Source: Sphyrna mokarran (lineage: Eukaryota). Taken from it: a DNA stretch of 64,000 bases. A model generated the notes under the pieces. That model did no database searches. It was given only the letters and a program-made list of their open reading frames with translations, and was not told the DNA's origin. The translations under genes were made by a program, and so were the position numbers. The DNA lies in contig JAGIQG010000006.1 in assembly GCA_024679065.1 (NCBI GenBank), positions 85,064,001 through 85,128,000 of the forward strand, in the 5' to 3' direction. Positions 5,386 through 60,570 of the stretch are shown here, piece after piece; positions within the stretch are counted from its first letter, which is position 1; every line of letters begins with the position of its first letter.

Positions 5386-5444
5386 ATAAAATGGGAACTT
5401 ATGAGAAACTTCACTCTGTTCTCAATTGCTTTGTCTTTTTGCAG

Positions 5445-5564
5445 ATGTGAACGAATGTGATGGAAGCCACAGGTGCCAGCACGGTTGTCAGAACATGCTG
5501 GGAGGTTACAGGTGCAGCTGTCCTCAAGGCTACATACAGCACTATCAGTGGAACCAGTGTGTTG
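5445..5564 (+). CDS. FBN2: Fibrillin-2 internal exon (one cbEGF domain); upstream exons lie outside the window
   Basis: Acceptor ttgtctttttgcag and donor GTTG|gtgagc; 120 nt, phase 1 to 1; encodes [40 protein letters not shown], the fibrillin cbEGF containing the QHYQWNQC motif. Confidence 0.95.
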
Positions 5565-6761: not shown

Positions 6762-7125
6762 TCATTCATTCATGGATTGTGGTCTTCGCTGGTCATTGAA
6801 AATGTTGTGGTGAGCCACTTTTTTGAGTGAAACTGGGTGGTTTGGTAGACCATGTCAGAGGGCAGTTAAGAGTCAACCACGTTGCTGTGGGTCTGGAGTC
6901 AGAGCAGGTAAAACAGCAGGTTTCCTTCCCTGGAGGACATTAATGAACCAGATGTATTTTTATAACAATCCTGCAGTTTCATGGTCATCAACTGCTACTA
7001 GCTTATTCCAGATTTATTTAATTAAGCAAGTTTTAATTCCCCAGCTGCCACGGTAGGATTGAAACTAGTATTTCCAAATCATTATTGCAGACCTTTGGAT
7101 TACTTGCCTAGTAACAGAACCAATA
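6762..7125 (-). mobile_element. tRNA-derived SINE with LINE-like tail (family 2)
   Basis: agagggcagttaagagtcaaccac..gtgggtctggagtc..ggacattaatgaaccagatg; homologous to 9781-10148 (+) and to the split copy at 31045/32651. Confidence 0.7.
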
Positions 7126-7229
7126 TTCTTTGGTTAGCATATATGCCTGAATAGATTACAGCTTTTTCTGTGATTGAGTCAATTGAAGATTAGAGACTAC
7201 ACAAAACAGCAAGATTAAGAAATTGGCAT

Positions 7230-8050
7230 AAATATGGGTGCAGATATTTGTATGAGAGAGGGGTTAAGGTAAGACAGGAAGGTAGTGAATTCAAAAGATG
7301 GAGGGCATGGTGTGTTGAAGTGGAAATTAAAATCATTGAGGATGAAAGATTGCTCACTGCAGAGACTGAAGGAAGGCAAGCTAGAGAGATGGAATAAGGT
7401 TGTGCTCAAAGAAGAGGGTTCAAGAGTAGTAGGGGAACAGATCAAGGTGAGATTTGGTAAGAACGGTCACATCACCAATGCAGTTGTTTGATCATGACAG
7501 ATGATGAAAGAATAACCAGGTGGAGAGGCTTCACTAAGGTGGAAGGAGAGCCATATTTCAATAAAGGTCATAATATCAATACAATTATTAACAATATGAC
7601 TATAGTCTTGTTAGAAATGAACAGACATTTTAAAGAGAGACAAGAAATGGATAATGATTGCTGATCCAATGAAAGAAATCATGGATTCTGCAATAAGAGG
7701 AATGTGCAGGACTTCAGAGGTTGGCAAGGATCTTTCCTAATGGACATGCCATTTCGGGAGTTTAGGAGAGTAAGATGAAGATGTTGCGTTTGCTCCTCTT
7801 AAGGATCCGAGAAAGAAGATATAAAAAGAGACAGAATTGGGTTACAGGAAAATGTGGAGGCAAGGGAGAGAGACTGATGAAAAGAAAAAGGAGGAAGGTA
7901 GAAATGATGGACTAGATTTTGGAACATTAACCAGAATGTATGGGACAGAAGGAAATTTGGGTTAAACAAACATGGTAATATTAAGATAGGAAGATCCTGG
8001 TTATAAATGGAGAGTAGAGAGAAGACAATAGTTGAAGTCAGAGATCCCAT
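7230..8050 (-). mobile_element. Decayed L2-like LINE fragments
   Basis: ORF 7215-7445 contains ILNDFNFH (endonuclease GDFN-like motif); the purine-rich + strand is typical of antisense L2. Confidence 0.4.
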
Positions 8051-8220
8051 ATATACAGCCAGTTAACATATTCAGCAGTTAACCTCTTAGATGTCAAAGC
8101 CAAAACATCTGTTATCTGCATGATGCAAAAGTTCCCAGGCAAATTGCCTATTTAAAAAAAAGAAATAGGAGCTGGAATAGGCCATTTGGCACTTTGAGTT
8201 GCTCTACTGTTAAATAACAT

Positions 8221-8349
8221 GGGCTAGAATTTTACCACCCCACCTGCCTGGCAGGATATTACAGCCCTGTTGAACTAAACACCAATTTAAATGATCTGTC
8301 ATATCCTGCAGCGGGTGACATGCTGTGACAGGGCCATACAATCCTGACC
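8221..8349. mobile_element. Short MITE-like element (Harbinger-type termini)
   Basis: Starts gggctagaattttacc and ends atcctgacc; similar termini at 33352, 37530, 48363 and 62124. Confidence 0.4.
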
Positions 8350-9029
8350 ATGGAAGCTGATCAACTTGCACTACATCCTGCCAAGCTCATAGGGAGGCCA
8401 CAAGAATTTATTGGCTCAATTGACCCAAATGTGGGGAAAACTACTCACCACTTACCTTTCTACTGGCAAAATCTGAGTGAGAAGGAATGTGACAAGTATG
8501 ACAGCACTGCTATCCCACTCAATTTTATGTCCCTATTTGACAGCCCTGCTATCCCACCCAATCTTACTTCCCTATTTGCTCCGTTGGGGCATAAAATTCT
8601 GGGCTATCTGTTTCAATGCAATCACGTCTCTTTCTCCAATACTAGGGAATTTAGGGCTATTCAATCTCTCTTCCTAGGACAAATCCTCTCATTCTGATGA
8701 ATCTTTGGTTAGCCTTCCTTCAGTCAGAAAATTAAATTGTATATATTACTCCAGTGCCAGAATTGAACGCTTCCCCGTCGTGAGTTCAGAGGTGGTCATG
8801 GGTGAGACGAAGTATAAAATTTCATGGACTGGACTCCCTCAGAGATCCTGTATGCCCTGACTTGGTCATAATTTTACAACGGGGTCTTGGATGGGAAGCC
8901 TAACTTTGCTCCATTAAGGCTCATAAGTGATTACTAATTTTGCTAATTATAATAAAGTTATCATGCCCCTAATAAAGGATTCTTGTATTTTCAACACAAT
9001 TGATGTTAACAATCTACTGTTTGGTGTTT

Positions 9030-10270
9030 TCTTTCTCCTTTCTTGAATAGCAGAGTTACATTTGCTTTCTTCCAATACAGAAGTACCAATCCAAAATCCA
9101 GACAATTTTGGAAAATCAAAACAAATGAATCTCCTATCCCTGAAACCATCTATTTAGGTCTAGGCAATTTGTCAGATTTATCCCCAATATCCCCATACTT
9201 AAAAGCTTGTAAGATGCCTTAAGCATCTTATTTTCACCTGACCCTTGACTCAGCCACTATTTACTGAATATTTTCTTTTTGTCTCCTACTAAGAAGATCA
9301 GTACAACTTATTTGTTTAACGACTCTGTCATTTCCTTATTCCGCATTATAAGTTCTCCTGGCTCTGCATATTTGCTATATTTGCCTTCTCTAATATCTTT
9401 TCACAAACCTATTGAAATGTCTACAATTTTTTACATGCCTTTAGCTAATTTACTCTCAGAACCTGTATTCACTTCCTTGGTCAACATCTTCATTATCATT
9501 TGCTGTATTTTCAAATCTTCAGGTATACTATTCTTTTTGGTAACATTAAATAAACTTCTTCCATTAATTTCATACTATCTTTGAACTCATTCTTAGTTTC
9601 AGTTGGACCAGTTTCCTGTGGAATTTTTATTATTTAAGGGAATGTTATTTGTAGTTTTAAAAAAAAAACTTTTTAAATATTTACAATTGCTTATCTATTA
9701 TCATATCTTTTCACTTAGCTTCCTAATTAATCTACTTTAAACAACTCATCCTTTATGTTCAAACAGTTTATTTTGCTTCAGATAGTAAGATAGTCATTGT
9801 GTTACTGGATTACTACTCAAAGTGTGGATTTACAATTCAGAGACATGAATTTAAATTCCACTGAATATTTTAAATTTAATTAATTAGTAAAGAATAATAA
9901 AGAAATCTGGAATCAAAAGCTATTATATCAGTAACAATTGGATTGTTGTAAAAACCTACCTAGTTTATGAACGCACTTTTAGGGAGGATTTGGTTTATTC
10001 TATATGTAATTCGAGATCCAGTTTAATGTAATTGTCTTTTAACTGCTTATTGAATTGGCCTAAGCAGCCATTCAGTTAAGGGCAATTAGGAATGGGTAAT
10101 AAATGCTGATCTTATTAGCCAAACACCCACCTCATGAATTATTAAAAATCTTAACTGAATCACTGTCAATCTCAATATAAATTCCATTATATTATGTTGA
10201 TTCATTGGCCTCTTAACATATTGATCTGAAAAACTATTTTGTATGCATTCTACGAATTTGTCCACCATAC
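9030..10270 (-). mobile_element. Old CR1 LINE remnants, interrupted by a SINE
   Basis: cctttcttgaatagcagagttacatttgc..tccaat (antisense of DW..ANVT..FKKG); ORF 10086-10268 KFVECIQNSFSDQYV resembles the CR1 endonuclease. Confidence 0.5.
9781..10148 (+). mobile_element. tRNA-derived SINE family 2
   Basis: aaatctggaatcaaaagc..ttgttgtaaaaacc..aagggcaattaggaatgggtaataaatgctg tail. Confidence 0.65.
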
Positions 10271-10741
10271 GATTACTGAAAACTTGAGATGCCCTGTTAC
10301 ATGCATAATAGGACTGTAAACCTATTCATGAATATTCAAGAAAAAATAGACACTTCACATGTCTATTGAATTAACAGGCTCTCACAATGAAACAAACCAT
10401 TTATTCCAATCAAAGGAATAGATAAATGAAGGCCTGGAATTTGTCTCACGCACTTCTCAGCACATGGGAAGCATCTTTCCCTAGATCTAAATGGTGAAAC
10501 TAGGATTTCCAGATATTGAACCTCAGATTTCTGCATATTGAATCCTGTAAAGTATCACAGCCCACTGGTGAAAAGTTGTGAAAGATTGGGTCGCTTTTTG
10601 TGTAGCAGCAGCTCTGAGCAAAAGGGATCTCCAGAATTCAGGACTGTTACGGGGAATCGGGCTGATCAGGTTTAAACATCAGAGCAGACAAGTTTTTGTT
10701 ATAATTTACCAATGATCCAAGTGTTGCATCTTTATATTTAG

Positions 10742-10973
10742 ATGAGAACGAATGCTCCAATCCAGCTTCTTGTGGATCTGCAACCTGCTACAACACACTT
10801 GGCAGCTACAAATGTGCCTGCCCTTCTGGCTATAACTTTGACGAGTTTGCCAGTAGTTGTCATGATGTGAATGAATGTTCATCCTACAAGAATCCATGCT
10901 CATATGGCTGCTCAAACACAGAAGGAGGCTATCTCTGTGGCTGCCCACCTGGATATTACAGAGTAGGACAAGG
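10742..10973 (+). CDS. FBN2: Fibrillin-2 exon encoding the last two cbEGF domains (absent from the ORF track)
   Basis: Acceptor ctttatatttag and donor CAAGG|gtaaga; 232 nt, phase 1 to 2; translates [78 protein letters not shown], very close to mammalian FBN2 as I recall it. Confidence 0.95.
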
Positions 10974-11510
10974 GTAAGACCGCAGCTGCTATTGCATTAT
11001 TCATCAAACCAGGTAAAATATGGATAAGGTGGAACTTAAAGTCATTTTCCATCATTGTATTGTTTGTTTGTATCTCTTACACATGCTTCTTCTCAAACTC
11101 AGTGGATGGGATCTTTTTGTCTATGAAATGTTCTTCCACTGTGGATAGATGCAAGTCTACAACTGCCTTAATAATGTTGGGATCTTCCTGGAGACAGCAC
11201 ATAAGAACCCTCCAGTGGGAGTGCCATCCAGTTAAGGACAACAGTCTGACAAGGGAATCAACAAGCAATGAGACCGTCCAGAACAGTATCCTGCCAACAG
11301 GCTGGACAGAAGAAATGGGCACTTCTGCGGCAGGTAGCAGAGAGTGGTTCAGAATGGAGAGGGGCAAAGATCGCCTGAGCCCTACAAAGGAGATGGTTCT
11401 CTGCATCACAGGGCCAGTTGCAATAGGACCTGTTGTACCCAGTGTTGCTCAGAACATTAAAGATAATAATCTGCTCCTGCCATATTTATAGAATAAAACC
11501 TTTGTTTATG

Positions 11511-11784
11511 ATAGAATCCCGCATGTACAAAAGGAGGCAGTTCAGTCCATGAAGTCTGCACCGCCTCTCCAACAGAGCATATTACCGAGACCCACACCCC
11601 TGCCCTATCCCACATAAGTGCCATGCTAATTCCCCCAACCTACACATCTAAGGGATAATTCAGCATGGCCAATCCATCTAATCTGTACATCTTTGGGAGG
11701 AAACCCAAGCGGACATGGGGAGAATGCACAAACCCTATATGGACAGTCACCATATATGCAAACCACTGTGCCACTATGTTGTCC
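11511..11784 (-). mobile_element. HE1-like V-SINE, CR1-type tail A
   Basis: atagaatccc..aaaggaggc tail; agcatggccaatccatctaa..ggggagaatgcacaaac core; aaccactgtgccac head (all antisense). Confidence 0.8.
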
Positions 11785-13597
11785 GTATGACACTTTTCCA
11801 CTCCAGCATACCCTTCTGCTGCTGTATGATGTAATGAGCAAGCTACTTATGGTCTGACCATGGACCTCTTGTTTCGCATCACAAACCCTCTTCCCTCACA
11901 CCAATCTTTCCTTATGAGTTCCTGCTTTGAGATCCCAACAATTGTTCTTCCCCACCAGTGGAGGTCCAGGAGGCAGCAGGAGGAAACCAACATTGAAATT
12001 CTAATGAACAAACCCTGTCACTTAATCTGACACTTGCAGCCGCCAATTCAAACATGGGAACTGAATGTGCCATGGACATTAGTGTACAGTTGAGGTCAGC
12101 AGCTGATGAGTTATCCAGAGAGGTCTGCAGCTAGGTCAGTGATAAAGAATTGTTCATATGTCTGCTCACAGGTGGACAAAATTGCAGATGAGAACTGCCA
12201 CAGAGGACATAGATGAAAATCTCCATGGAATAGCATCCAGGAGGACATGTGGATGAGGATGCAAGCTGAGATACTGAGTTCATCGATAGACATGCCAGAC
12301 TGCCTCCTGTTACTGTCAAGAAACATGGAGGCGCCTGGCTGCAGTTTAATGGAAGGGTTAATGTTGAGCTTGCCTTCTCCACAGTTTCTGCTCCATATCC
12401 CTGCTGACCTGTAAGCCCAAGATGTACAGCTCCTGCTGCATTTTTATCTGTTGTAGCCTTTGAGCAGACCAGTCATCTATTCCTCTTCTCCAGTCGCAAC
12501 CTATCCCATCCCCTTTAAGGATTCTGATAATTCAAGGAGCTTATTGCAATGCCTCTAAAACCAGGGCAGAGTGTTTCCAGTCGCTGTTCATTCAAAAAAA
12601 AGTCCAACATAATTTACCTGTAAGTAGGTGAATTAAGGACTGGTCATTTAAGAACTGCTAGTGCAGGGTTAGTGTTTGATTTTTTTTCTTCTTTAATGAA
12701 GAGTGAACTCATTGTCTGCACATTCATTGCCCAAATTTGGGTTCCTGGCATCAGATCAGAAAATTGGACTGTATGACATCAGGATAGTGCTACATCAATG
12801 TCTTCTCGTTCACTCACGTGATTCACTGGTATACTACCTTTCCTCAAATTATGCCACACAGAAAATGGCTGACAGTGAAGGTCACACATCAAAAGTAATG
12901 CAAGGCTTGTACTAATGCTGCATGAAGCAACACTTCACTGGACTTGCAATCTTCCAAAGAATAAGTAACTTTTTTTTATCCTACCAAAATTATTCATGTC
13001 ATACTACCCTATACTGAATTAAATTTGCTAATTATCTACTTATTCTCGAAGTCTGTGTATGTTTGGTGCAGTCCTCCACATTATTAGAACCTCCAATATT
13101 TGTTCTTGTACACATGTCATAAATCATATTCTTCATAACTGGGGAATTGTGACATTTGAAATTTAGTGAAATGAGGCACATGTGAGCTGACAGAATAGAA
13201 CATATTGGTGTGGTTCTGAAATAATTTAGTTCTTTGTGTGAAATCTAAGTTGGTAGACAGTTGCCAGGCATACCCAGGAATTCACAGTTCATTCTTTATA
13301 TGAGGAAAATCAAAGTGTCAAGTCACATTTATTTGGATGCTTTAGAGATTTCACATAGATTGAGCAATTTCAAATACAAACTTCGATCAGCTTTCTTTCA
13401 TCTGCCTCATACTTCTAGCCCAAAGCTCAGGACTGCTCCCAATATCTCCTAACAGAAACCTGCGCTTCTTCAGCTGACAGCAGTATGCAAAAACCTATGA
13501 CTGTTCCAACAGACTACCAGTATAAAATCAGCAGGCATTTATTAGATTAGACACAAAGTTGGCCAAGACTCAGGTACACCAGTTCCTGGCCATAACC

Positions 13598-13810
13598 ACA
13601 ACAATTTGATTTATATAGCACTTTTAACATAGAAAAGCTTCAAAGAGGCATAATCAGAAAGATGGGCACAGATCCAAAGAAGAAGATATTAAAAGGGCTG
13701 AATAAAAGCATGGTCATGGAGTTGAATTTCAAGGAAGGGATAAAATAAAGAGACGAGTTACAGGATGCAGAGGCGTTTAGGGAGGCAGTTCCAATATCTG
13801 GAGCCTAAAT
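13598..13810 (-). mobile_element. L2 LINE 3' fragment
   Basis: acaacaatttgatttatatagcactttt start and gtttagggaggcagttcca are typical antisense L2 3'-end motifs. Confidence 0.5.
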
Positions 13811-14164
13811 TATGGAATGAATTAACCCAATTGACCAGCATTTTGCCAAACATTAACCTGAATGAAGTAATATGTTATGTAAATGTGTTGTAGCAATTAA
13901 ATATTACAACAAGGCTGTGCTACCAGCTCCCACTGCCTGCATCTCAAGCAGTTTACCTGCAGCTTAAAAGTGAGTTTGCTAACATTAGTTACAAGCAATG
14001 TGAAGACCGAAGCATTAGCAACCAACACCACTCACATGGGTCTCAAGCAACATAATGATATCTTCTACCAAGAGACAGATACAAACATAACAAATGTCAT
14101 GGAAAGGGTGTGAAGTGTGTAAGAGAGAAACAGAAATAGCATAACAAATACTGTAAAAAAAAAG

Positions 14165-15324
14165 TTTGATTTATTATTGTTACATGTATTAGTATATAGT
14201 ATTTTTTGCGCATTATACAGACAAAGCATACCATTCATAGAGGAGGCAAAGAGAGGTGCAGAATGTAATGTTATAGTCATGGCTACGGTGTAGAGAAAAA
14301 TCAACTTAATGTAAGGTAATCAGATTGAAAAGTCTGATGGCAGCAGGGAAGAAACTGTTCTTGAGTCAGTTGATACATGTCCTTAGACTTTTCTATCTCT
14401 TACCCAACAGAAGAAGGTGGAAGAGAGTATATTTGGGGTGCGTGGAGTCTTTAATTATGCTGACTGCCAATGAGTGGGATACTGGTTTGAATGATTGACT
14501 GCACTTCATTCACGACCCTTTATTATTTCTTGCAGTCTTGGACAGAGCAAGAGCCATACCAAGCTGTGATATGACCAGAAAGAATGCTTTCTGATGTTCA
14601 TCTGTAAATGTTGATGAGAGTCATAGCAGACATGCCAAATTCCCTTTGTTTTCTGAGAAGGTGGAAGTATTCGTGGGCTTCCTAAACAATAGCATTGATA
14701 TGGCGAGACAAGGATAGGTTGTTGGTAATTCTAGAAACTTGAAGCTCTTGACATTTCTACTACTTCCCCAATAATGTAGACAAGGACATGTACTCCACTA
14801 TGCTTCCTGAAGTCAATCACTATTTCTTTCTTTTGTTGATATTGAGGAAGAGATTATTGTCATTGCACCAATTCACCAGATTCTCTATCTCTTTCCTGTA
14901 CTCTGTCTGTTACTCATCATTGTTTGAGATCTGACCCACAATGGTGGTGTCATCAGCAAATCTAAAAATTGAGTTGGTGTAGAATTTGGCTGCACATCCA
15001 TGGATGTACACGGAGTATAGTAAGGGGCTGAGGACACAGCCTTGTGGGACACTGATGTTGAGGATGATCGTGGAGGAGGTGTTGTTGCCTTTCCTTACTA
15101 ATTACGTTTTGAGGATTAGGAAGTTCAGGATCCAGTTGCAGAGGGAGGAGCTGAGCACCAGGTGACGAAGTTGGAGATAAGTTTCATAGGAATAATGGTG
15201 TTGAAGGCTGAGCTGTAGTCGATAAATAGGAGCCTTTCCAGAGTTGAGTGCAGGGCAGGGAGACGGAGTCTACTGTAGACAAACTGCATTGGCTGCAAGC
15301 AATCTGGGAGGCTGGAATTGAACA
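14165..15324 (-). mobile_element. Rex1/Babar-like LINE, 5'-truncated, in an FBN2 intron
   Basis: RLLFIDYSSAFNT (ORF 15125-15325) and antisense PQGCVLSPLLYS (aaggggctgaggacacagccttgtgg); tail tttgatttattattgt; homologous to the copies at 30113 and 57222. Confidence 0.8.
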
Positions 15325-15473
15325 TGAATGTTTACAACTGAATTGATGTATAGGGTCAATTTTAACTCTTTACAAGCCTTGAATGAGTTAAGATTTCATC
15401 CACGATGGCAGTTCTGATTTTAAATTCCACACATCGTATCAAATTCTAATCTCTCTCTTAATTTACTCCATAG

Positions 15474-15645
15474 CCATTGTGTGTCTGGCATGGGATTTAA
15501 TAAAGGCCAATATCTGCCTTTTGGTGGAGATCCTGATGATGAAAATCTTTTGTCACATGAAACATGCTATGAATGTAAGATCAATGGCCACTCCAAGAAT
15601 GGTGGCAGAAAGAGAAGAAGTGTCAATAGTACTGCATCGGATCAG
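15474..15645 (+). CDS. FBN2: Fibrillin-2 penultimate exon with furin cleavage site
   Basis: Acceptor tttactccatag and donor GATCAG|gtaact; 172 nt, phase 2 to 0; HCVSGMGFNKGQYLPFGGDPDDENLLSHETCYECKINGHSKNGGRKRRSVNSTASDQ. HCVSGMGFNKGQYL is FBN2-type; RKRR lies at 15607-15618. Confidence 0.95.
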
Positions 15646-15950
15646 GTAACTGTCTCTTTTGTAAATAAACTGAACAGCAACAGGTTTTCTTTGTATGAAA
15701 TAAATTGGACCAGAACTAAGGATTTAGAGATTCTAAGTTATATAGTCAAAAATATTAAGTCTTCACTTCATGGAAATGAAAAATGTACACTTGTATATCC
15801 ATCAAATAAAGAATTTTATGTTCGGAAGTATTTAAATATTGACTGCCTTTGCAGCCTAATTTGAAGTTTCCCAATGACAGGAATGAAACATGTTAATGAT
15901 TTCACAGGTACGCATTACTAATAATCCCTTGCTATTTATTTTGATGCTAG

Positions 15951-16325
15951 GATCAACAGGTTAGTTTGGCTAGTCTGGATATAGACAACCCAGTCAAAAT
16001 GAATCTAACTATCTCGGAGCTGAACCACAAGAATCATATTTTGGAATTTGTGCCAGCAATTGAACCACTCAACAATCATGTTCGCTATGTGATCTCCTAC
16101 GGAAATGACAATAACTACTTCCGTATCCACCAAAAGGATGGTTTGAGCTACCTGCACTTGACCAAGAGGAGGCCTCTGGAAGGTACTTACACACTTGAAA
16201 TCACCAGTATTCCTCTCTATAAGAAAAAAACACTGCAGAAACTGGAAGATAAAAAAGACAATGACTACCTCCTCGGTGAGCTGGGAGAAGCACTCAAAAT
16301 GAGACTACAAATCCAGCTTCATTAA
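15951..16325 (+). CDS. FBN2: Fibrillin-2 terminal coding exon (C-terminal propeptide, placensin-like)
   Basis: Acceptor ttttgatgctag; [15 protein letters not shown]...[19 protein letters not shown], stop TAA at 16323-16325; matches the FBN2 C-terminus ([19 protein letters not shown]). Confidence 0.95.
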
Positions 16326-20250: not shown

Positions 20251-23200
20251 TTAGAAACATAGAATAGTATAGCACAGTACAGATCCTTAAGCCATCAATG
20301 TTGTGCCAAGGTATAGTCAAACTAAGATTAAGCTATCCCACTCCTTACCATTCTGACGTATTCTATGTGCCTATCCAATAACTGCTTGAAAATTCTTAAC
20401 ATGTCAGACTCTATCACAGCAGGCAGTGTATTCCACACCCCTACCACTCGCACATCCCTCCTATTATCTCCTACCATGAACCTTATAGTTATGCCCTTAG
20501 TAACAGCTACATCCACCCGAGGAAATAGTCTCTGAATATCCACTCTATCTATCCCCCTCATCACCTTATAAACCTCTATGACGTCATCTCTCATCCCCCT
20601 CTGCTCTAAAGGGAAAAGCACCAGCTCTTCAACCTTCCCTGCTAAGATCTGCCCTCTAAACCAGGCAGCATACTGGTAAATCTCCTCTGCACTCTCTCCA
20701 ATGCTTTCACATCCTTATAATGAGGTGACCAGAACTGCACACAATATTCCAAATGTGGTCTCACCAACATCCGGTATAGTTGCAGCATAACCCCACGGCT
20801 CTTAAACTCAAACCCCTGTTAATAAATGCTAACACACTATAAGCCTTCTTCATGGCTCTACCTACTTGAGTGACAAAATTCAGAGATGTGTGGATATGAA
20901 CCCCAAGATCTCTCTGTTCCTCCACATTCCTCAGAACCTTGCTGTTTACCTGCGCTCATGTTTGCTCTACCAAAATGAATCATCTCACACTTATCAGGGT
21001 TAAATGCCATTTTACCATTTTTCAGTCCAGTTTTGTACCCTATCAATGTCTCTTTGCAGCCTGCAAGAGCCCTCCACCTTATCCACTAGACTGCTCCACT
21101 AGTCTTGCTGTCATTAGCAAATTTATAAGCCCCTTCTTCCAAGTCATTAATAAAAATCATGAATAGCAGCAGACCCAGCACTGATCCCTGTGGCACACTA
21201 CTGGTAACTGGTCTCCAATTTCAACATTTTCTTTCCACTTCTACCCTCTGTCTTCTATGACATAGCCAGTTACTTATCCAATTGGCCAAATTTCCTTCTA
21301 TCCCACACCTCCTTACCTTCTTCATGAGCCTACCATGGGAACCTTATCAAATGCCTTACTAAAATCTATGTATACAACATCAATTGCTCGACTTTCGCCT
21401 ACACACTTAGTTACCTCCTCAAAGAATTCAATCAAATTTGTGAGACAGGACTTACTGTTCACAAAACCATGCTGACTACCCCATATTAAACTTTATCTTT
21501 CTAAATAGTCATAAATCCTATCTTTCAGGACACTTTCCATTAACTTACTGAGCACTGAAGTAAGACTAACTGGCCTATACTTACCAGAGTCATTTCTATT
21601 TCTTTTCTTGAAGAAAGGAACAACATTAGCCACAATCCCCATGGACAGTGAGGACCCAAAGATCAAAGCTAAAGGCTCTGCAATTTCATCCCTTATCTCC
21701 CAAAGTATCGTAGGATGTATCCCTTCTGGCCATTGACCCTCAGGTTTTTCAAAGTTGCTAATACGTCCTCCCTCAGAACATCTACCTCCTCCATCCCATC
21801 AGCCTGTATCATGCACTCATCCTCAAAAACGTGGCCCCTTTCCTTGGTGAACACTGAAGAAAACTATTCATCAACACGTCATCTATCTATTTTGATTCCA
21901 TGTACAAGTTCCTACTACTATCTTTGACTGACCCTAATCTCGTCCTGGTCATTCTTTTATTTCTCATAAAAGTAAAAAGTCTTGCAGTTTTCCTTTATCC
22001 AACCCACCAAGGACTTCTCATGCCTCCGCCTAGTTCTCCTAAGCTCTTCCTTTAACTCATTCCTAGCTACTTTGTAACCCTCAAGTGACCCTTGAACTGA
22101 ACCTTGTTTTTTCACCCTTACCCTTCTTTTTGCCTCTTGACAAGATAATCAACCTCCTTTATGAACCATGGTTCCCTCGCTTGGCCATTTCCTCACTGGC
22201 TGCCAGGGACATACCTAATAAGGACATGCAGTATTTGTTCTTTGAAACAGCTCCACTTTTTGTACCCATACCTGAATAGTTTCTCTTCCATTTTATGTTC
22301 CCTAATTCTTGCCTAATTGCATCATACTTACCCCTGCCCCAATTATAAACCTTGCCCTGCCGTGTGCCCCATTCCTCTCTATTGCAATAATGAAAGATAC
22401 CAAATTATGGTCACTATCTCCAAAGTGCTCTCCCACAATCAAATCTAATACTTGGCCCAATTCATTGCCCAGTACCAAGTCCAATGTGGCCCCACCTCTT
22501 GTCAGCTTATCAATATATTGTGTTAGGAAACCCTCCTGCACACTGTACAAAAAAGTGTCCATCTGAACTATTCATCCTATAAATGTTCCAATCAATATTT
22601 GGGAAGTTGAAGTCACCCATGATAACTGCACTGTGACCTCCACACCTATCCATAATCTGCTTTGCCATTTCCTCCTTTACATCTCTATTACTATTTTGGG
22701 GGCCAATAGAAAACTCCTAACAACGTGACCGATCCTTTTCTATTACTAAATTCAGCCCATATTACCTCAGTAGGCAGATTGCCCTCAAAATGCCTTTCAG
22801 CAGCTGTTGAACTATCCTTGATTAACAATGCTATCTCTTTTACCGCCTTCCCTGCTCTTACTGAAACATCAAAACCCCGGAACTGCCAACAACCATTCCT
22901 GTCCTTGTTCTAAACATGTTTCCATAATGGCCACAACATCATAGTCCCAAATACTAATCCACACTCCAATTTCACCTATCTTATTCCTGATGCTCCTTGC
23001 ATTGAAGTAGATACACTTCAACCCATCATCCTGTCTGCTTGTACACTCCTGCAACCTTGATACTTTTCTCAGTACCTCACAATCCTCAACACTGGCTTTT
23101 GGACTACATCTCATTTTCCCATCTCCCTGACAAATTAGTTTAAACTCTCCCCACCCCCTGCTGCCCCTCTGGTTCAGGTGTAAACCATCCTGTTTGTACA

Positions 23201-25014: not shown

Positions 25015-28000
25015 AACATAGAACAATACAACACAAACAGGCCCTTCAGCCCACGAGTTGCGCCGATCACATCTACCAATCCACAGACCTATCTATAACC
25101 CCCTATCCTATTCTTTTCCATATACTCATCCAGAAGTCTCTTAAAAGACCCCAGTGAGTTTGCCTCAACAACCTCCGACGGCAGTCGGTTCCATTCACTC
25201 ACCACCCTCTGAGTGAAAAACCTACCCCTGACATCTCCTTTGTATTTGTTTCCCTGCACCTTAAATCTGTGTCCTCTCGTAGTGACCATTTCAGCTCGGG
25301 GAAATAGTCTCTGAGAGTCCACCCTACCTATTCCTCTCAACATTTTATAAACCTCTATCAGGTCGCCTCTCAACCTACGTCTCTCCAGTGAGAAGAGTCC
25401 CAGCTCCCTCAACCTATCTTCATAAGGCCTGCCTCCCAATCCAGGCAGCATCCTTGTAAATCTCCTCTGAACTCTCTCAATAGCCTCTACATCCTTCCTA
25501 TAATGAGGCGACCAGAACTGCGCACAATACTCCAACTGGGGTCTGACAAGAGTCTTATAGAGCTGCATCATTACCTCCTGACTCCTAAACTCTATTCCTC
25601 AATTAATGAAGGCCAGTACACCGTACGCCTTCTTGACCACTTCCTCCACCTGCGAGGCCGATTTAAGAGTCCTATGGACCCGGACCCCGAGATCCTTCTG
25701 CTCTACAACATAGCTAAGACTCCTACCCCTTATATTGTACTCCTTCATCCCATTATTCCTGCCAAAATGGACCACTACACATTTATCTGCGTTGAAGTCC
25801 ATCTGCCACTTCTCCGCCCAGTCTTGCATCCTGTCTATGTCCCGCTGCAACTTTTGGCATCCCTCCAGACCATCCACAACACCACCGATCTTTGTATTGT
25901 CGGTGAACTTGCTAACCCATCCCTCCACTTCCTCATCCAGGTCATTTATGAAAATGACAAACAGCAGGGGTCCCAGAACAGATCCCTGGGGCACTCCACT
26001 GGTTACCGACCTCCATGCAGAACAAGACCCATCCACAACCACTCTCTGCCTTCTGCCGGCAAGCCAGTTCTGGATCCATGAGGCCAAAGCCCCTTGGATC
26101 CCATGCCCTCTCACCTTCTCCAGAAGCCTTGCATGGGGGACCTTATCAAACGCCTTACTAAAGTCCATGTACACTACGTCCACCGCTCTTCCTTCGTCAA
26201 TGTGTTCAGTCACATTTTTGAAGAACTCAACTAGGCTCGTAAGGCATGACCTGCCCTTGACAAAACCATGCTGACTATTTCTAATCAGTCCAAACTTCTC
26301 CAAATGTTCATATATCTTATCCCTCAGAAGCCTCTCCATCAGCTTACCAACCACTGAAGTCAAACTCACCGGTCAGTAATTTCCTGGACTATCCCTGTTC
26401 CCTTTCTTAAAGATAGGAACCACATCCGCAATCCTCCAATCCTCTGGAACCTCTCCCGTTTCCATGGATGACGCAAAGATCATCGCCAGGGGCTCTGCAA
26501 CCACTTCCCTCACCTCCCACAATAACCTGGGGTACATCCCATCCGGTCCCGGCGACTTGTCTATCTTGATAGAATTTAACAGGTCTAACACATCCTCTTT
26601 TCTAACATCCACATACAATCTTTTCCGTATGCCGCAAACCTGCAGTGCAATCTCCCAGTTCACTTTCCACTGTGAATACCGAGGCAAAGTACTCGTTAAG
26701 CACCTCTGCCATTTCTTCCGGATTCACACAGACTTTTCCCCCTTCACCTTTTATAGGCCCTATCCCTTCTCTTCTCATCCTTTCACTTTTCACATAATTG
26801 TAGAAGGCCTTGGGATTCCCCTTAATCTTACCTGCCAAGGCCTTCTCATGACCCCTTCTGGCTCTCCTAATTTCCTTTTTAAGTTCCCTTCTACACACCT
26901 TATACTCCTCTAGATCCCTAACATCCCCTAGTTCTCTGAATCTTTTATATACCATTTTTTTCTTCCTAACTAGGTTCACCACTACCTTCGTGCACCACGG
27001 TTCCCGCGTCCTACCTGAACTTCCTTGACTCCTCGGAACGTTGTCTTGCAGTGCCCTAGACAAACATTCCTTGAAAAACCATCACTTTCCTTCTGTACTC
27101 TTCCCCAAGAATACCTCCTTCCAGTTTATGCGTCCAATTACCTGCCTAATGTTTTCATATTTCCCCTTACTCCAGACATATACCTTCCTAGCCTGCCTGA
27201 TCCTGTCTCTTTCCATCACTATCGTGAAAGAGATAGAATTATGATCTCCATTCCCAAGATGCTCACCTACCATGAGATCCGACACCTGCCCTGGCTCATT
27301 AGCAAGCACCAGGTCAAGTACAGCCTCTCCTCTTGTATGCTTTTCCACGTACTGTGTCAGGAAACCTTCCTGAACACACCTAACAAACTCCACACCATCC
27401 AAACCCCTTACCCTTGGGATATTCCAGTCGATGTTTGGGAAATTGAAATCTTCCATCACGACAACCCTGTTATTTCTACATCTGTCTAGGATCTGTTTCC
27501 CTATCTGCACCTCAAGTTCCCTGCCGCTGTTGGGCAGCCTATAGAATACACCCAGCAAAGTTATCGAGCCTTTGCTGTTCCGCCCACAGAGACTCCGTAG
27601 ACAATCCCTCCCCGTCTTCCACCTTCTCTACAGCCATGACACTATCCCTGATCAACAGTGCCACACCACCTCCTCTTTTGCCCCCAACCCTGTCCCTCCT
27701 GAAGCACCTGAATCCTGGCACCTGAAGTACCCAGTCCTGTCCCTGAGACAACCAAGTCTCTGTAATGGCCACCACATCACACTCCCAAGCAGCAATCCAC
27801 GCCCTAAGCTCATCTACCTTATTTACTACACTCCTGGCATTAAAATAGACACACCTCAGCCCCTCAGTCAGGATATTTCCCTTTTCCACCACCTGCCTAA
27901 CCCCCCTCTCAGAGTGCCTACAGTGCTTCCCTACCTTGGAACTAACCTCCTTATTCACCGTCCCATCGGTATTCCCACCCCCCAGCTTTTCTAGTTTAAA

Positions 28001-28335
28001 GACTCCCCAGTAGCCCTAGCTAGCCTACCTGCCAAGATATTAGTCCCCCTAGGGTTCAAGTGCCACCCGTCCTTACTGTACAGGTCACACCTGCCCCTAA
28101 AGAGGTCCCAATGATCTATGAACCTGAATCCCTGCCCCCTGCTCCAGTCCCTCAGCCATGCATTCATCCTCCACCTCATTTGATTCCTGCTCTCATTCTC
28201 CTGAGGCGCAGGCAGCAATCCTGAAATTACTGCCTTAGCTTTTCTCTTCCGCAGCTTCCTACCCAGTTCTCTATAATCCCTTTTGATGACTGCCTCCCCC
28301 TTCCTGCCGATGTCTGCAGTACCTATATCACCACT
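25015..28335 (-). mobile_element. Relatively young CR1 LINE, 5'-truncated within ORF1, ORF2 frameshifted
   Basis: ORF1 esterase (DHWDLF..DGWHLNPRG), endonuclease (YFNARS, AITETW, DFNFPNIDW, GNGDHN), RT ([23 protein letters not shown] in place of FADD), C-terminus LEYCAQFWSPHY; flanked by GATCATAG at 25007-25014 and 28336-28343. Confidence 0.96.
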
Positions 28336-28600
28336 GATCATAGCTGGTTTTTCATGGATTCGGCTCCACTTACCCGCCCGCTTTCCATAACCCTTCGTTC
28401 TTTACTGTTCAAAAATTTATCTATCTTTGCTTTAAAAACATTCAATGAGATAGCCTTGACTGTTTCACTGAGCAGGGAATTCCACAGATTTACAGCTGTT
28501 TGTGTGAAGGAGTTCCTCCTCAACTCAATCCTAAATTGGCTTTCCTTTACTTTGAGGCTATGCCCACTAGTTCTAGTTAACATTCCTCTCAATGATATTT
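28336..28600 (-). mobile_element. Older CR1 3' fragment (right part)
   Basis: ORF 28338-28733 TSGHSLKVK..FRIELRRNSFTQTAVNLWNSL matches the CR1 ORF2 end. Confidence 0.85.
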
Positions 28601-30112
28601 GTGATGAATTAATGGCAATAATTGTATAATATCGCACTCTCTTTGGTATGTTTTTAACCCAGTTAGAATAGAGAGCATAGAAAAATTTTATATAACCATA
28701 TAATGTGTTTATTCTGAACATTGCAGAAAGCAATTTTACCTCATAGAAAGAAAGTCAATATTTATCAAAATAATAATAATTAAAATGTTAATTTGTTGTA
28801 ATGATTAGATACATCTTCAATAACATGCTCATGGCTTATCAAGTTGCAGGAATTCCCAGGCGTTTACTTAATTGTCCCAAGCACTGTAATAATAGCACCC
28901 TGTTCAGAAGTTTCATTCAAAGCAGCAGGAAATCAGCCTTTTCCATGCACCCGACTGTGGCTATTTCTAGACGTCACATGTTATATTTAAGCACTTGGAT
29001 TTTGATTACACTGTCACTACAATTATCTAACAACAAGGAGTAAAGGTTTGAATGCCAAAAGAATGGATGAATACATTTTCCTTAGCCAGCAAGTGACTAC
29101 AGAAGGAGTATACAGCACAGATTTTTCTGTTCTGAAATATGCTTACAAGTTCCAACGTCAAATAACACATGTATTAATAATCAAATTCACTGTCTTTGGG
29201 CAATGCATTCATTGATATAATTTGATGCATCAAACCCTCTTCAGTTGCTACCACTTACATCTTGTGTTCTTGCCAAAAGCTGGGCTGATAAATTCAGGGA
29301 TCTGACTTGCATCAGGATTATCTTCTCATGATTTTGAGGCAGAAAACAAGTTACATTCTACTTTTTGACGAAGAAGAGTAAATAAGAGGTCTTTAATCGG
29401 TGTGCTAGAGCACACTGGTGCACCATGAGAAGAGTGCAAGGGTGCTGTGGCTATAGGGCACATTTTGTATCTTTGTAGAAGTAGTAGAAGGTGGGGGGGA
29501 GGGAGAGGCTGCAAAGAGACACTTGTGTTACATTGTGGAATCAGTGACATTCAGACACACACGCACACGCTAAATGATCCACATCTCAACATGTCAGAGA
29601 GCCAGGGATGGAGTCTTCAAACTGATCATTCAGGAGAAATCTGGCAAGAAACCTACAGGAACTCAATTCTAAAACTTTCTCCAGTGAGTGTGGACAGTCC
29701 CCACTCTGGTTCTGTGTGTGTGTGTGTGCTCCTTCTGTCCCAAAAGGCTGACATGAGCTTGGATCTGCTTCTTTTCCCTGATATTTAATCTTCTCCCTGA
29801 CAAGGGGAAATGGGGAGAATGGGCTTTATTATTCAAGCTCTGACCTGCATTTCATCACTCTAGCCATACACAGCAGTAGATAAGTGAAAAACAGACTCAT
29901 TACCTGAGGCCCTTCACTTCAGGGAACATGGTTGTGCCGTTCTGTACCCATTGCATGCCAGCTACACTGGGGGCTTCCTTTCAGGGCATCCCAGGGTTAG
30001 AAGCTGTTCCTCATTCCCTCCAACAGTGATCTCACTAACTCCAGTTGGCAAGGTTGAGACGGAGATGCATAGTAAGCTGGAGTCTTGGACGCCCCATATT
30101 TCCAGATTTTTA

Positions 30113-30800
30113 ATTGATTTGATTTGATTTATTATTGTCACATGTATTAACATAGAGTGAGAAGTATTGTTACTTGTGCGCTGTACAGACAAACATATTG
30201 TTCAAAGAGAAGGGAAAGAGAGAGTACAGAATTTAGTGTTACAGCCATAGCTGGAGTGTAGAGAAAGATCATCTTAATGCAAGATAAGTCCATTCAAAAG
30301 TCTGAGAGCAGCAGGGAAGAAACTGCTCTTGAATCAGTTGGTACATGACCTCAGACTTTTGTACCTTTTTCCTGAAGGAAGAAAGTGGAACAGAGAATGT
30401 CTGGGATGCAGGAAGTCTTTAATTATGCTGGCTGCTTTGCTGAGGTAGTGGGAAGTGTAGACAGAGTCAATGGTTGGGAAGCTGGTTTGCATGATGGATT
30501 GGGCTGCATTCATGATTTTTGTAGTTTCTTGCGGTCTTGGGCAGAGCAGGAGCCATACCAAGCTGTGAAACAACCAGAAACAACACTTTCTATGGTGCAT
30601 CTGTAAACGTTGGTGAGACTCATAGCTGACATGCCAAATTTCCTTTTCTGAGAAACTAGAGGCATTGGTGGGTTTTTTAAACTATACTGTTGGCATGGGG
30701 GGAATTAGGACAGGCTGTTGGTGATCTGAGCACCTAAAAACTTGAAACTCTCAACCCTTTCTACTTTGTCCCCATTGATGTAGACAGTGACATGTTCTCC
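30113..30800 (-). mobile_element. Rex1/Babar-like LINE 3' fragment
   Basis: (atttg)n tail; KAASIIKDFLHPRHSLFHFLPSGKRYKS motif; homologous to 14165-15324. Confidence 0.8.
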
Positions 30801-31044
30801 TTTATACCTATCCAAGATCCAAGGCAATGGAGAACAGCATTAAGCAAATTGTCTCCACCTCAGCTGCTGATATTGGGTTTGTGCCTTGATGGACTGACAA
30901 GGAAGGGAAAATTACAACATTATGAAAATAAAGATTGGGCAATGGTGTTTCCTAAAAATATGTATCACTTTTGGGGACTCACTTAGTCAGCGACCAAAAT
31001 GTTTTTTTTGTGTGAATATAATGTGGGCAGAACATGCTGGGCAA

Positions 31045-31118
31045 GCATTTATTGCCCATCCTTAATTGCCCTTAAACTGTGGACCTGGAGTCACAGATAG
31101 GCTGGACCAGGTAAACGC
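31045..31118 (-). mobile_element. SINE family 2, left part (split by the Penelope insertion)
   Basis: gcatttattgcccatccttaattgccctt tail then ctggagtcac..gaccaggtaa; resumes at 32651. Confidence 0.7.
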
Positions 31119-32650
31119 AATAAGAAGTCTCACAACATCAGGTTAAAGTCCAACAGGTTTATTTGGTCGCATGAACCACTAGCTTTCGGAGTGCTGTCCC
31201 TTCATCAGGTAAGTGGGAGTTCTGTTCTCAAATAGAGCATATAAAGACGCAAACTCAATTTAGAAAATAATGGCTGGAATGCGAATCTTTACAGGTAATT
31301 AAATCTTAAAGGTACAGACAATGTGAGTGGAGAGAGGGTTAAGCATAGGTTAAAAAGATGTATATTGTCTCCAGCCAGGACAATTAGTGAGATTTTGCAA
31401 ACCCAGGCAAGTCATGAGGATTACAGATAGTGTGACATGAACTCAAGATCCCAGTTGAGACTGTCCACATCTGTGCGGAACTTGGCTATCAGTCTCTGCT
31501 CAGTCACTCTATGTTGTTGAGTGTCAAGAAGGCCAACTTGCAGAACGCTTACCCAAAGACCAGAGGCCAAATGCCTATGACGCTGACCATTCCCCAACGG
31601 AAGAAAACACTCTTGCCTGATGATTGTCAAGCGGTGTTCATTCATCTGTTATCATAGCATCTGCATGGTCTCCCCAATGTACCAAGCTTCAGGACATCCT
31701 TTCCTGCAGCGCATCAGGTAGACAACGTTGGCCGAGTTTCAAGTGTATGTACAGTGTATGTGCTGGATGGTATTCTCACATGAGATGATGCCATCCGTGT
31801 CAATGATCTGGCTCATCTTGCTGAGGCTGCTGTGGCAGGGATGTGTGGTGTCATGTTTATTGTTCTCCTGAAGACTGGGTAGTTTGCTGCGGACAATGGT
31901 CTATTTGAGGTTGTGTGGTTATTTGAAGACAAGAAGTAGGGGTATGGGGAAGGTATTGACGAGAAGGTATTCATCTTCATTGATGACATTGTTGAACACT
32001 CTGGAGAAGACATCATAGCTTCTCTACTTCGGGGAAGTACTGGACAACAAAGGGTACTCTGTCCGTTGTGTCCCGTATTTGCCTTCTGAGGAGGTCAGTG
32101 CGGATTTTCACTGTGGTGCATTGAAACTGTCGATCAATGAATTGAGTTCCATATCCTGCTCTTATGAGGGCATCTTTCAATGTCTGGAAGTGTCTGTTGT
32201 GATCCTCCTCATCTGAGCAGATCCTGTGTACCCGTAGGGGATGGCTTCTTTAACATGTTTAGAATGGAAGCTGAAGAAGTGGATCATCTTGAGGTTATCC
32301 ATTGGGCTTGCGGTACAGTGAAGTGCTAGATGACCATCCTTGATGGAACTACATGTGTCCAAGAATGCAACTGATTCTGGAGAATAGTGCATGGTGAGTC
32401 TGATGGTAGGATGGAACTTGTTGATATCACCATATAGTTGTTTCAGTGGTTGTTCACCATGAGTCCAAAGGAAGAAAATGTCATCGATGTAGCATCGGTT
32501 GAATGTCCTGTGCAGTGAAGAGGTTTTGTTGGGAGCAGCACTCTGAAAGCTAGTAGCTTGTGCTACCAAATAAACCTGTTGGACTTTAACCTGGTTTTGT
32601 GAGACTTCTTACTGTGTTTACTCCAGTCCAATGCCAGCATCTCCACATCC
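31119..32650 (-). mobile_element. Penelope-like element (RT plus GIY-YIG endonuclease remnants) with inverted terminal arms
   Basis: RT YIDDIFFLW..FHPTIRLT..VAFLD (ORF 32177-32569); GIY-YIG SANVVYLMRCRKGCPEAWYIGETMQ (~31662-31736, antisense) and EQRLIAKFRT..LN.D; the arms at 31119-31195 and ~32538-32612 are reverse complements. Confidence 0.92.
31176..31212 (-). ncRNA. Minimal type I hammerhead ribozyme motif in the PLE terminus
   Basis: The minus strand reads UUAC CUGAUGA A GGGA CAGCAC UCC GAAA GCUA GUGG: intact core boxes, short stem II, palindromic AGCU stem III and stem I UUAC/GUGG. Activity is not shown. Confidence 0.75.
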
Positions 32651-32847
32651 AGATTTTCTTTCCTTAAGGAACATTAGTAAGCCAAATGGATTTTTACAAC
32701 AATTGTTTCATGGTCATCACTGAATTTTTAATTCCAGCTTTCAATTAAATTTAAATGTCCTCATTTGCCACAGTGGGATTTGAACTTAGGTATCCAGAGC
32801 ATTACCCAGGATCTCTGAATTACAATTCAGTGACAATACCAATATGC
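32651..32847 (-). mobile_element. SINE family 2, right part
   Basis: cagattttctttccttaaggaacattagtaagccaaatgg..gtgggatttgaac (antisense B box) continues the copy at 31045-31118. Confidence 0.75.
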
Positions 32848-33351
32848 ATAGTAAGAAATCCCACAACACCAGGTTATGCACAGAGGTATATATTTAGCAT
32901 ATTTCATTGATAATTACAGAAGAGAATGGGACATTGCATTTTTCGAGAAAGATGTTTTGTGCTTGCAAATTTTATTGAATATTCATCTTTTGTACTCACC
33001 AGTCTTTGGGACATGAGTATAAAAGCTAGGTCTCCCTTTTATCTGCTTTTATTGTAAAGACGGTTTGTCTTAGGTGATCCTCAACTTGATAATTTTAATG
33101 CTGTAGGTTCACTCAAAGCAACGTAAAGATAGCAAAGGGTCACATTCATTGATCATTGCAGGCTGATATAAGCATTTCTAAGTGCTGCACAGATGTCCTC
33201 TGGATCAGTAATCACTACTGAGTGTGTACCACAAAGCTTCATACCCTAGGCTGCTCCAGCTGGTAGACTACACAGATTTAGAAATTGCTCTACAAATGAG
33301 TTGAAATAAAAAAAAATCCACATTAGTATCAGGGAGCTGAGATCTCACTAT

Positions 33352-33613
33352 GGCTAGGATTTTCTGCCCTCTCCCCGTAGTGGGATTTCCCCACATCTGG
33401 TATAACAAGCTATGGCTACCAGTGAGATCTTCGACTGAAACCTTCCAGTTTTTGAATATTTTGCCTGTCTCCAGAATCGGTTGCATTCTTGGTCATAAGC
33501 ATCTCCATCAAGAATGGTCACCTCAGCACTTCACTGTACCACCACTGGGAAATCTGCTATGAGGATCAGAAGCAGAAGATCCTGCCCGCGGAATGGGCCT
33601 AAAAATCCCAGCC
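33352..33613. mobile_element. MITE-like element
   Basis: The termini ggctaggattttct and aaaaatcccagcc are near reverse complements. Confidence 0.55.
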
Positions 33614-38317: not shown

Positions 38318-38515
38318 AGTAAGAAGATTGACAACACCAGATTTAAATCCAACCGATTTATTTCATAGTAAGCTCACAAGCTTTCGACCTGTGGCTTTTG
38401 AGGCCATAGGTCGAAAGCCTGTGAGTTTACTATCAAATAAATCGGTTGGATTTAAATCTGATGTTGTCAGACTTCTTACTGTGTTTACCTTAGTCCAATG
38501 CCGGCATCTCCACAT
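38318..38515. mobile_element. Near-perfect palindromic PLE-derived mini-element with 14-bp target-site duplication
   Basis: agtaagaag..ccagatttaaatccaaccgatttattt..gctttcgacct / aggtcgaaagc..aaataaatcggttggatttaaatctg..cttcttact; tail agtccaatgccggcatctccacat; ATTTAGAAATAAAG at 38306-38319 and 38514-38527. Confidence 0.88.
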
Positions 38516-50460: not shown

Positions 50461-50925
50461 TAACTCCTGTAGAAATTTAAGGTAGGCTGGATAGTTCAAT
50501 ATTATTATTTTAATTTTTTGTTCTAAATTAGTTACTCAAGCTAAAAACGATGAAAAGGTGGAATTCTGAGATATGCCTAGCCAGCCAAAGGAAAGCCCTA
50601 ATAAAACTAATCACATAGAATAGAAAAAGAAAATTTTAAGCCCCTGCAAATTATATAGTGAATATAGGGAATAGCTGAACCCATGTATAATAAGGTAACT
50701 ATCCCAGTTTTCCATGGAAAATTAATTAAATCGCAGAATGCAACTCCCAAAATATCTGTAAAAATTCAAAATTCCATTGCATGGAATAAATAATTGGATT
50801 TATTCAGTCATCATAAATGCTCTATTAATGGGCCGCAAGTTAAAAATAAATACTCTCTTTTCACCACTATGTGGCACTCTCTATCCATTGTAAAGAGCAA
50901 TGCAGTTGGGCTTAGACTTCTCATG

Positions 50926-51042
50926 ATGTGGAGATGCTGGCATTGGACTGGGCTAAATGCAGTAAGTAGTCTCACAACACTAGGTTAAAGTCCAACAGGT
51001 TTAGTTCTGTTGGCCTTTAACCTGGTGTTGTGAGACTTCTTA
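50926..51042. mobile_element. Palindromic PLE-derived mini-element, centre deleted
   Basis: Tail atgtggagatgctggcattggactggg; arms agtctcacaacactaggttaaagtccaacag / ctgttggcctttaacctggtgttgtgagact. Confidence 0.85.
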
Positions 51043-51569
51043 TTTGGACTTCTTCCCAGTGAGTGACACTTCTCGTTCCTGTGTTTTAAAGACTGTGCCA
51101 CAAATAGCCTGCAAGATGTTCTGGGATTTGCTCTTTTGCATTTCCACTGGTGCAGTCCTGTTCGAAAGTCCATGTAAAACAGATACAAGTAACTGAACAA
51201 GCTAGCTGGAAACAGCATAGTTGCACTTTCTGCAGCAGCAGGCTGTGGGACAAACTGATAAGGAACAAGACTTATTTATTTCATTTCACTCTTGAATAGC
51301 TTCATTACGTGTCATGGCAATTTTAACAATATATTTGTGTATAATAATGACTAAGCAGTCACCTTATGAACCTAGCAAAATATGGCATCAAGACACAGAA
51401 GAATGCAGAAATTCACTGATTCAAATTGCTAAATGTGACAATGGTAAAATCATGACCAGGAGGGCACATGTGCTGAGTATGGGTGCAACCAAGCCAGCTG
51501 GGAATCTCATGCCAACTTGGAGGGAGGTGGCACGTGCATAAGAACAAACTCCTTCATCTTCAGGAGTAT

Positions 51570-51730
51570 AGTAATAAGTTTCACAACACCAGGTTAAACT
51601 CAAACAGGAATCACCTAATGAAGGAGCGAGACTCTGAAAGCTCGTGCTACTAAATAAATCTGTTGGATGTTAACCTGATGTTGTGAGACTTCTTGCTGTG
51701 CCTACCCCAGTCCAATGCCGGCATCTCCAT
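51570..51730. mobile_element. PLE-derived mini-element with hammerhead-like core
   Basis: tcacctaatgaaggagcgagactctgaaagctcgtg; arms and tail as in the other copies; flanked by ttcaggagtata (51559) and ttcaggagcaca (51731). Confidence 0.85.
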
Positions 51731-60400: not shown

Positions 60401-60440
60401 AAGAAGGTCTTACTTAGATTTCTCTGTTAGAACTCTTACA

Positions 60441-60570
60441 AAACCATGTTAAAGAACAACAGGTTTATGTGGTATCATGAGCTTTTGGAGCACTGTTCCT
60501 TCATCAGGTGAGTGGCGCCACTTTAACCTGGTGTTGTGCCCACTCCAGTCCAATGCCAGCATTTTCATAT
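60441..60570. mobile_element. Decayed PLE-derived mini-element
   Basis: aacaggtttat..gagcttttggagcactgttccttcatcaggtgag (antisense CUGAUGA core), then actttaacctggtgttgtg..ccagtccaatgccagcat. Confidence 0.75.

Follow-up and report, generated by a model that had tools for sequence, protein, structure and literature searches.

A broken Penelope-like element

The window, meaning the whole 64,000-nucleotide stretch of Sphyrna mokarran DNA that was analysed, holds the remains of a Penelope-like element (PLE) on its minus strand. A 5'-truncated and broken open reading frame (ORF) lies at 31421..32531. Translations, an alignment and tblastn show reverse transcriptase (RT) from the YxDD region onward, the thumb, a degraded cysteine linker and a GIY-YIG endonuclease. 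Downstream, also on the minus strand, are the 3' untranslated region and the pseudo-LTR (31099..31420), which ends short without a full tail. They were recognized by their likeness to 10 other stretches of the repeat in the window and by contigs from sequencing runs. At the truncation point there is an inverted pseudo-LTR arm (32531..32649, plus strand), and the ORF similarity found by tblastn extends to 32531, the exact start of this arm. Pseudo-LTR, inverted 5' arm and one-sided tail are all present.

The ORF is badly damaged, with at least four frame changes and six in-frame stops, and neither Pfam nor NCBIfam recognizes the decayed fragments themselves. The order of RT followed by a C-terminal GIY-YIG domain comes from alignment of the fragments to shark proteins that have Pfam RVT_1 and a weak GIY-YIG hit. 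The C-terminal 185 residues (read through with X) are 61-69% identical to eight proteins among 95 candidates, all eight of which are named from sharks (Mustelus, Scyliorhinus and Heptranchias). A cysteine linker precedes the endonuclease in all five aligned relatives, and a DKG motif is found in the two longest. In the alignment, the focal ORF has lost the CxxC of the linker and a conserved endonuclease arginine. Two papers treat the cysteine linker as a mark of Neptune and Nematis elements (Arkhipova et al., 2013, PMC3846280; Craig et al., 2021, PMC8557442). This gives a lead: from the CX2-5CxxC linker of its relatives, degraded in the focal copy, the element may be Neptune-like.

A candidate target-site duplication of five bases, a weak one, flanks the unit (31094..31098 on the left, 32650..32654 on the right, no strand). 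A five-base match is at chance level, yet both copies adjoin the inferred ends of the element. The arrangement is that of PLE insertion units as described by Arkhipova et al. (2013, PMC3846280) and Craig et al. (2021, PMC8557442), in which a truncated ORF lies between a direct and an inverted pseudo-LTR, with the tail on one arm and possibly a short target duplication. There is no difference in kind, although the focal duplication is only five bases long and uncertain. A single insertion event probably produced both the truncated copy and the inverted arm.

Some smaller pieces surround the unit. Just beyond the inverted arm are a 72-base piece of the RT of the same PLE (33468-33540, plus strand) and a short tail fragment (32850-32876, minus strand). 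On the other side, the flank (30940-31106) is spanned by a single contig of a second organism, which has 15 other letters and four gaps and ends eight bases inside the element. It hints, weakly, that more than one species carries the insertion.

A minimal type I hammerhead in the pseudo-LTR

The pseudo-LTR contains a minimal type I hammerhead motif at 31176..31212 on the minus strand, 212 nt downstream of the ORF stop codon (31423-31421) and on the same strand. Hammerhead numbering is used below, and general hammerhead chemistry is taken as background. Sequence, descriptor scans and a position table place the parts as follows, all on the minus strand. The 5' strand of stem I (31212-31209) is followed by C3-A9, which reads CUGAUGA (31208-31202, with C3 at 31208 and A9 at 31202), and by one extra A (31201). 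Then come stem II, decayed to three pairs (31200-31188, with G10.1 at 31200 and C11.1 at 31188), and GAAA (31187-31184, with G12-A14 at 31187-31185 and G12 at 31187). The palindrome A15.1-G-C-U16.1 (31184-31181, with A15.1 at 31184 and U16.1 at 31181) leads to A17 (31180) and the 3' strand of stem I (31179-31176). The predicted cut lies between 31180 and 31179.

All 11 invariant core letters are intact, and the motif agrees with CUGANGA plus GAAA-NN-UH. The G10.1-C11.1 pair and the palindromic 15.2/16.2 are both there, and stem I has four pairs, two of which are U.G. The first-pass annotation had reported these letters and coordinates with both core boxes, and a re-reading of the sequence agrees. 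It had also proposed an AGCU palindrome in place of stem III, which is found at 31184-31181, and a closed stem I, which holds with its two U.G pairs counted among the four. However, its GGA/UCC stem II is a decayed register that needs two unpaired bases after A9, outside the published descriptor. In the registers that the descriptor allows, the focal stem II has three pairs including one G.U.

Could the motif be a chance arrangement of hammerhead-like letters? The core boxes alone match once in the window against 0.88 matches expected, and 59 of 100 shuffles reach one match. Bare core boxes are at chance level. In addition, hammerhead is absent from the Rfam matches for the window and for 31100-31300 (201 bases), and the folding energy of the isolated 37-mer is ordinary, being no better than that of shuffles (z +0.5). 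Two-sided covariation is also lacking among the four core-spanning copies in the window. The stems tell against chance. The published descriptor of the min-HHR (Cervera and De la Pena, PMC4209133, Fig S7) calls for three to seven pairs in each of stems I and II and at most one extra base after A9. With the stems included, the focal locus is the sole match in the window, and a match of any kind appears in only eight of 1000 dinucleotide shuffles. The focal copy passes with four pairs in stem I and three, one of them G.U, in stem II. A stricter version that adds G10.1-C11.1 and the palindrome is matched by none of 300 shuffles. Furthermore, the motif sits where PLE hammerheads are described, and the same design is seen in other copies in the window. 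Within the core, the position listed as varying among the sequencing runs is 7, the free one (another letter in 15-22% in three runs, 5% in one). A chance origin is therefore highly improbable. Descriptor match and position after the GIY-YIG ORF both fit the earlier reading of a PLE minimal type I hammerhead in a 3' terminal repeat, and by these sequence tests the motif is a member of that class.

A search for the tail word of the pseudo-LTR gave two loci that were set aside as chance matches, with neither a hammerhead nor the remaining repeat. Two other scans for the word gave no loci.

The inverted arm starts at G10.1 and is without the CUGAUGA box, but it has family-type stem II bases and a full tail. 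It differs from the focal copy at 12 of 90 aligned bases, which makes the two the closest pair among six copies, and they have A17 and a 7-base subfamily extension in common.

An intact core and a decayed stem II

The focal copy had been called the best-preserved ribozyme copy in the window. For the core this is correct. None of its 11 invariant letters is changed, whereas the three other core-spanning copies have two, one and one of 11 changed; four further copies consist of the 3' half only. For the ribozyme as a whole it is not supported, and the reason is stem II. Folded alone, stem II gives -0.5 kcal/mol in the focal copy and -1.5, 0.0, -3.2, -1.5 and -0.2 kcal/mol in five other copies, so it is weaker in the focal copy than in three of the five. 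It also departs from the family majority at 10.3 and 10.4.

The state of the family was read from contig pieces of four of the 24 listed sequencing runs, aligned to 30940-31420 at 80% likeness or more and expressed as depth-weighted shares. This comparison is biased to pieces resembling the focal copy, is without linkage between positions and is not a copy count. Run X1 alone has 66,904 contig pieces on 30940-31420, nearly all on repeats, and there are tens of thousands per DNA run. At 31198 the four runs have another letter in 64, 57, 65 and 93% and at 31197 in 78, 76, 86 and 97%; both changes lead to a Watson-Crick stem II of four pairs. A fifth pair (31192) is found in 39, 46, 55 and 9%. 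Since the inverted arm has the family state at both 10.3 and 10.4, the two departures most likely arose in the focal copy after insertion. At position 2.3, U.G is a variant common in the family, with C in 42-45% of three runs and 84% of one. Free position 7 has another letter in 15, 17, 22 and 5% of the four runs, and the 11 invariant core positions do not appear among the 40 of 56 variable rows listed.

Position 17 (31180) is variable, with A, C and U all present among the window copies. It is U in 43% of run X23, compared with 4-7% in the other three runs.

Does the intact core mean that it has been selected? The pseudo-LTR differs from the run X1 majority at 21 or more of about 307 positions (about 7%, from the 40 of 56 rows listed). 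Measured against their own majority, the window copies differ at 5 of 64 core positions (8%) and 61 of 494 tail positions (12%), a contrast that gives a Fisher p of 0.41 in a test of little power. At 7-12% divergence, the probability that all 11 sites survive is 0.45-0.25 for one copy, and the probability that at least one of four copies keeps them is 0.91-0.68. Given these odds, an intact core is no proof of selection. It is expected by drift alone, and there is no sign of constraint, although the test is a weak one.

Among the four core-spanning copies in the window, two-sided (compensatory) change is found at none of eight stem pairs. Paired cells make up 87.5% against 28-41% when the alignment is slid, as expected when the structure was read from these same sequences. 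The runs have a one-sided variant, U.G or C-G, at position 2.3, in data that do not give linkage between positions. A long hairpin at 38380-38420 was not counted toward covariation, being a fold-back junction whose self-complementarity follows from its construction.

These results bear on the idea that the host has selected the motif as a regulatory cut site, for example one that ends a read-through transcript near the 3' end of fibrillin-2. Two observations lean toward it, namely that the focal core is the sole intact one among four copies and that the second-organism contig over the flank to 31106 weakly hints at an old, shared insertion. However, the intact core is expected from drift anyway, and selection for cleavage should have kept stem II from decaying. 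The position of the gene is also wrong. The sole host gene found in the window is the 3' end of a fibrillin gene on the plus strand, with coding exons at 5444-16325 and its stop at 16325, so that it ends 15 kb from the motif. Two of its exons are 80-86% identical to the best-matching fibrillin proteins, some of which are named fibrillin-2. Because the gene is on the plus strand, its read-through transcript would be antisense to the motif. Taken together, selection by the host is most improbable.

A likely working parent and a probable decaying copy

The motif is very probably part of the 3' end repeat of a broken, 5'-truncated shark PLE, a likely inactive and neutrally decaying copy of a ribozyme that likely worked in the active parent. 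What would the ribozyme have done there? Minimal hammerheads in the pseudo-LTRs of metazoan PLEs were described in 2014 (Cervera and De la Pena, PMC4209133). In that work, the Schistosoma mansoni monomer shows no cleavage and dimers show low cleavage only. Lunse et al. (2016) also support dimer cleavage, according to a review. For an Anolis PLE, the account reports cleavage only with the element's protein, insertion in vitro without need of the ribozyme and no RNA-seq reads ending at the cut site (Frangieh et al., 2024, PMC11167929).

Applied to the parent of the focal copy, this literature suggests a tandem transcript in which two pseudo-LTR copies would pair their AGCU palindromes into a four-pair stem III and swap their stem I strands. 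Two copies would be needed since a monomer without stem III is unable to fold. The RNA might then be cut after position 17, slowly and probably with the help of the element's own protein. A single insertion would have laid down the truncated copy together with its inverted arm. Later drift of about 7% would have struck stem II and spared the 11 core letters by chance. Stem II would now hardly form, and in any RNA read through the element the inverted arm is predicted to pair with both stem II and the cut site.

Some observations sit awkwardly with a fossil. Core, palindrome, stem I and the G10.1-C11.1 pair have all stayed intact, and the copy still matches the published descriptor. Moreover, one published Caenorhabditis briggsae family also has a three-pair stem II (PMC4209133, Fig S3). 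Perhaps, then, some low-rate RNA cleavage by this copy persists in cells. Minus-strand transcription might come from an internal promoter or from read-through, the partner might act in trans or be a half copy nearby, and active members of the family might supply protein. This is unlikely, and the evidence on it concerns partners, folding and transcription.

The element has no complete same-strand partner within it. The closest copies on the same strand are a 3' half (38386, 7 kb upstream) and one at 60515 that is mutated at G12. The half copy keeps GAAA, the palindrome and one stem I strand, all of which would help, but it is part of a fold-back unit of its own. Since family members are very numerous, there could be partners, and the protein-assisted cleavage reported for the Anolis element (PMC11167929) is a precedent for help from other members.

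Folding is less kind to the idea, quite apart from the weakness of a three-pair stem II. A hammerhead dimer of the focal copy is computed at -1.1 kcal/mol against -15.6 kcal/mol for the best dimer fold, and dimers of two other copies at -5.7 and -6.5 against best folds of -17.7 and -17.6 kcal/mol. The dimer energy of the 60515 copy was set aside, as no stem I was formed. A rival hairpin has a predicted probability of 0.70 both in the focal copy and in the copy at 51613, which has a four-pair stem II. These dimer and hairpin results weigh little because the nearest-neighbour energy model ignores the catalytic core and predicts the same misfolding with a four-pair stem II.

The inverted arm may be a greater obstacle. 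When the whole unit is folded as a single minus-strand RNA, the minimum-energy structure pairs 82 of the 90 positions of 31111-31200 with the inverted arm, and the predicted duplex covers G10.1, G12, A17 and G1.1. A transcript running through the element is thus predicted to hide both stem II and the cut site in this duplex; one that began within the ORF would avoid it. As for read-through, no minus-strand host gene was found among the 97 frames of at least 84 aa in the window, a scan that short exons would escape. Run X23, which is only guessed to be RNA and consists, like all 24 listed runs, of contigs unable to show RNA ends, has no reported cluster of starts or ends.

The dead ORF, the missing same-strand partner, the predicted duplex and a host gene on the other strand all argue against cleavage in cells, and together they make it unlikely. 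Residual cleavage in vitro, by a forced dimer at high Mg2+, has a better but still less than even prospect, and would be compatible with the reading of a decaying copy.

What if old copies were instead kept by the host as dimer-dependent cut sites, switched on in trans by RNAs and protein of active family members and cutting host read-through transcripts? If true, very many shark PLE ends would form a genome-wide, transposon-triggered network of RNA cleavage. The proposal is hardly credible. The reading of a neutrally decaying copy, by comparison, gives the locus little significance alone. The cellular role of PLE hammerheads would be better tested with a young, intact element. The locus does serve as a warning: drift is expected to leave intact cores in old repeats, and a stem II register should be compared with the family's.

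Relation to known systems

The motif class has been known since 2014, and the focal copy is one of very many decayed copies. Families of PLE hammerheads from turtle, coelacanth, frog and fish are among those described. No shark row was seen in Table S1 or Fig S3 of PMC4209133, and a search that missed most subscription journals found no published account of a shark PLE hammerhead.

The closest comparison is with the published min-HHRs themselves, in which A9 is followed by one unpaired base and G10.1 pairs with C11.1 (PMC4209133). The focal motif is likewise of type I. It too has CUGANGA followed by a single unpaired base, a G10.1-C11.1 pair and a palindromic 15.2/16.2, lacks stem III and lies in the 3' repeat of a truncated element. 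In Fig S3, the painted turtle row shares the G-C centre of the palindrome and has a similar short word following stem I. What differs is stem II, which has three pairs in the focal copy, the lower limit of the descriptor, and four to five in the family. The focal H17 is A, a letter less frequent than C or U in the rows of PMC4209133, yet present there.

The Anolis element PAc, of the Penelope/Poseidon clade (Frangieh et al., 2024, PMC11167929), is also a vertebrate PLE with RT and GIY-YIG domains and a hammerhead in its pseudo-LTR. PAc is intact and its protein-helped cleavage has been shown, whereas the focal copy is broken, its hammerhead is putative and its relatives, which have a cysteine linker, are possibly of Neptune type.

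Animal non-LTR retrozymes, reported in one cartilaginous fish, also have type I hammerheads, related to those of PLE pseudo-LTRs (bioRxiv 10.64898/2026.07.22.740005). However, retrozymes are tandem non-coding units with a complete hammerhead in each, and the focal motif is a single copy on a PLE ORF. The window has one complete motif, and its other copies are dispersed or head-to-head.

Other repeats in the window

Five more short head-to-head units of the same PLE repeat ends are found at 2566-2758, 38320-38511, 50925-51044, 51572-51729 and 60426-60560. Each has a full tail on one arm only, and three of the five have exact flanking duplications, of 14, 7 and 8 bases. In several units the arms join within the hammerhead or close to it (core, about 2675; stem II region, about 38395; stem I, about 51610). 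At the fold-back centre of 38380-38420, the sequence before GAAA is unlike that of the other copies. It may represent a second subfamily with a longer stem II, a hairpin that would look the same as a fold-back junction.

Repeats of other kinds are also present. In a fairly complete LINE at 25089-28754 on the minus strand, Pfam recognizes a GDSL esterase-like frame together with an apurinic endonuclease and an RT, and an older, related RT remnant lies at about 20518-21798. A LINE-like 3' end occurs in three copies that are 70-75% alike (14165-14990, 30118-30800 and 57228-58092), and the last of these gives a Pfam ALKBH8_N hit at 57643-57945.
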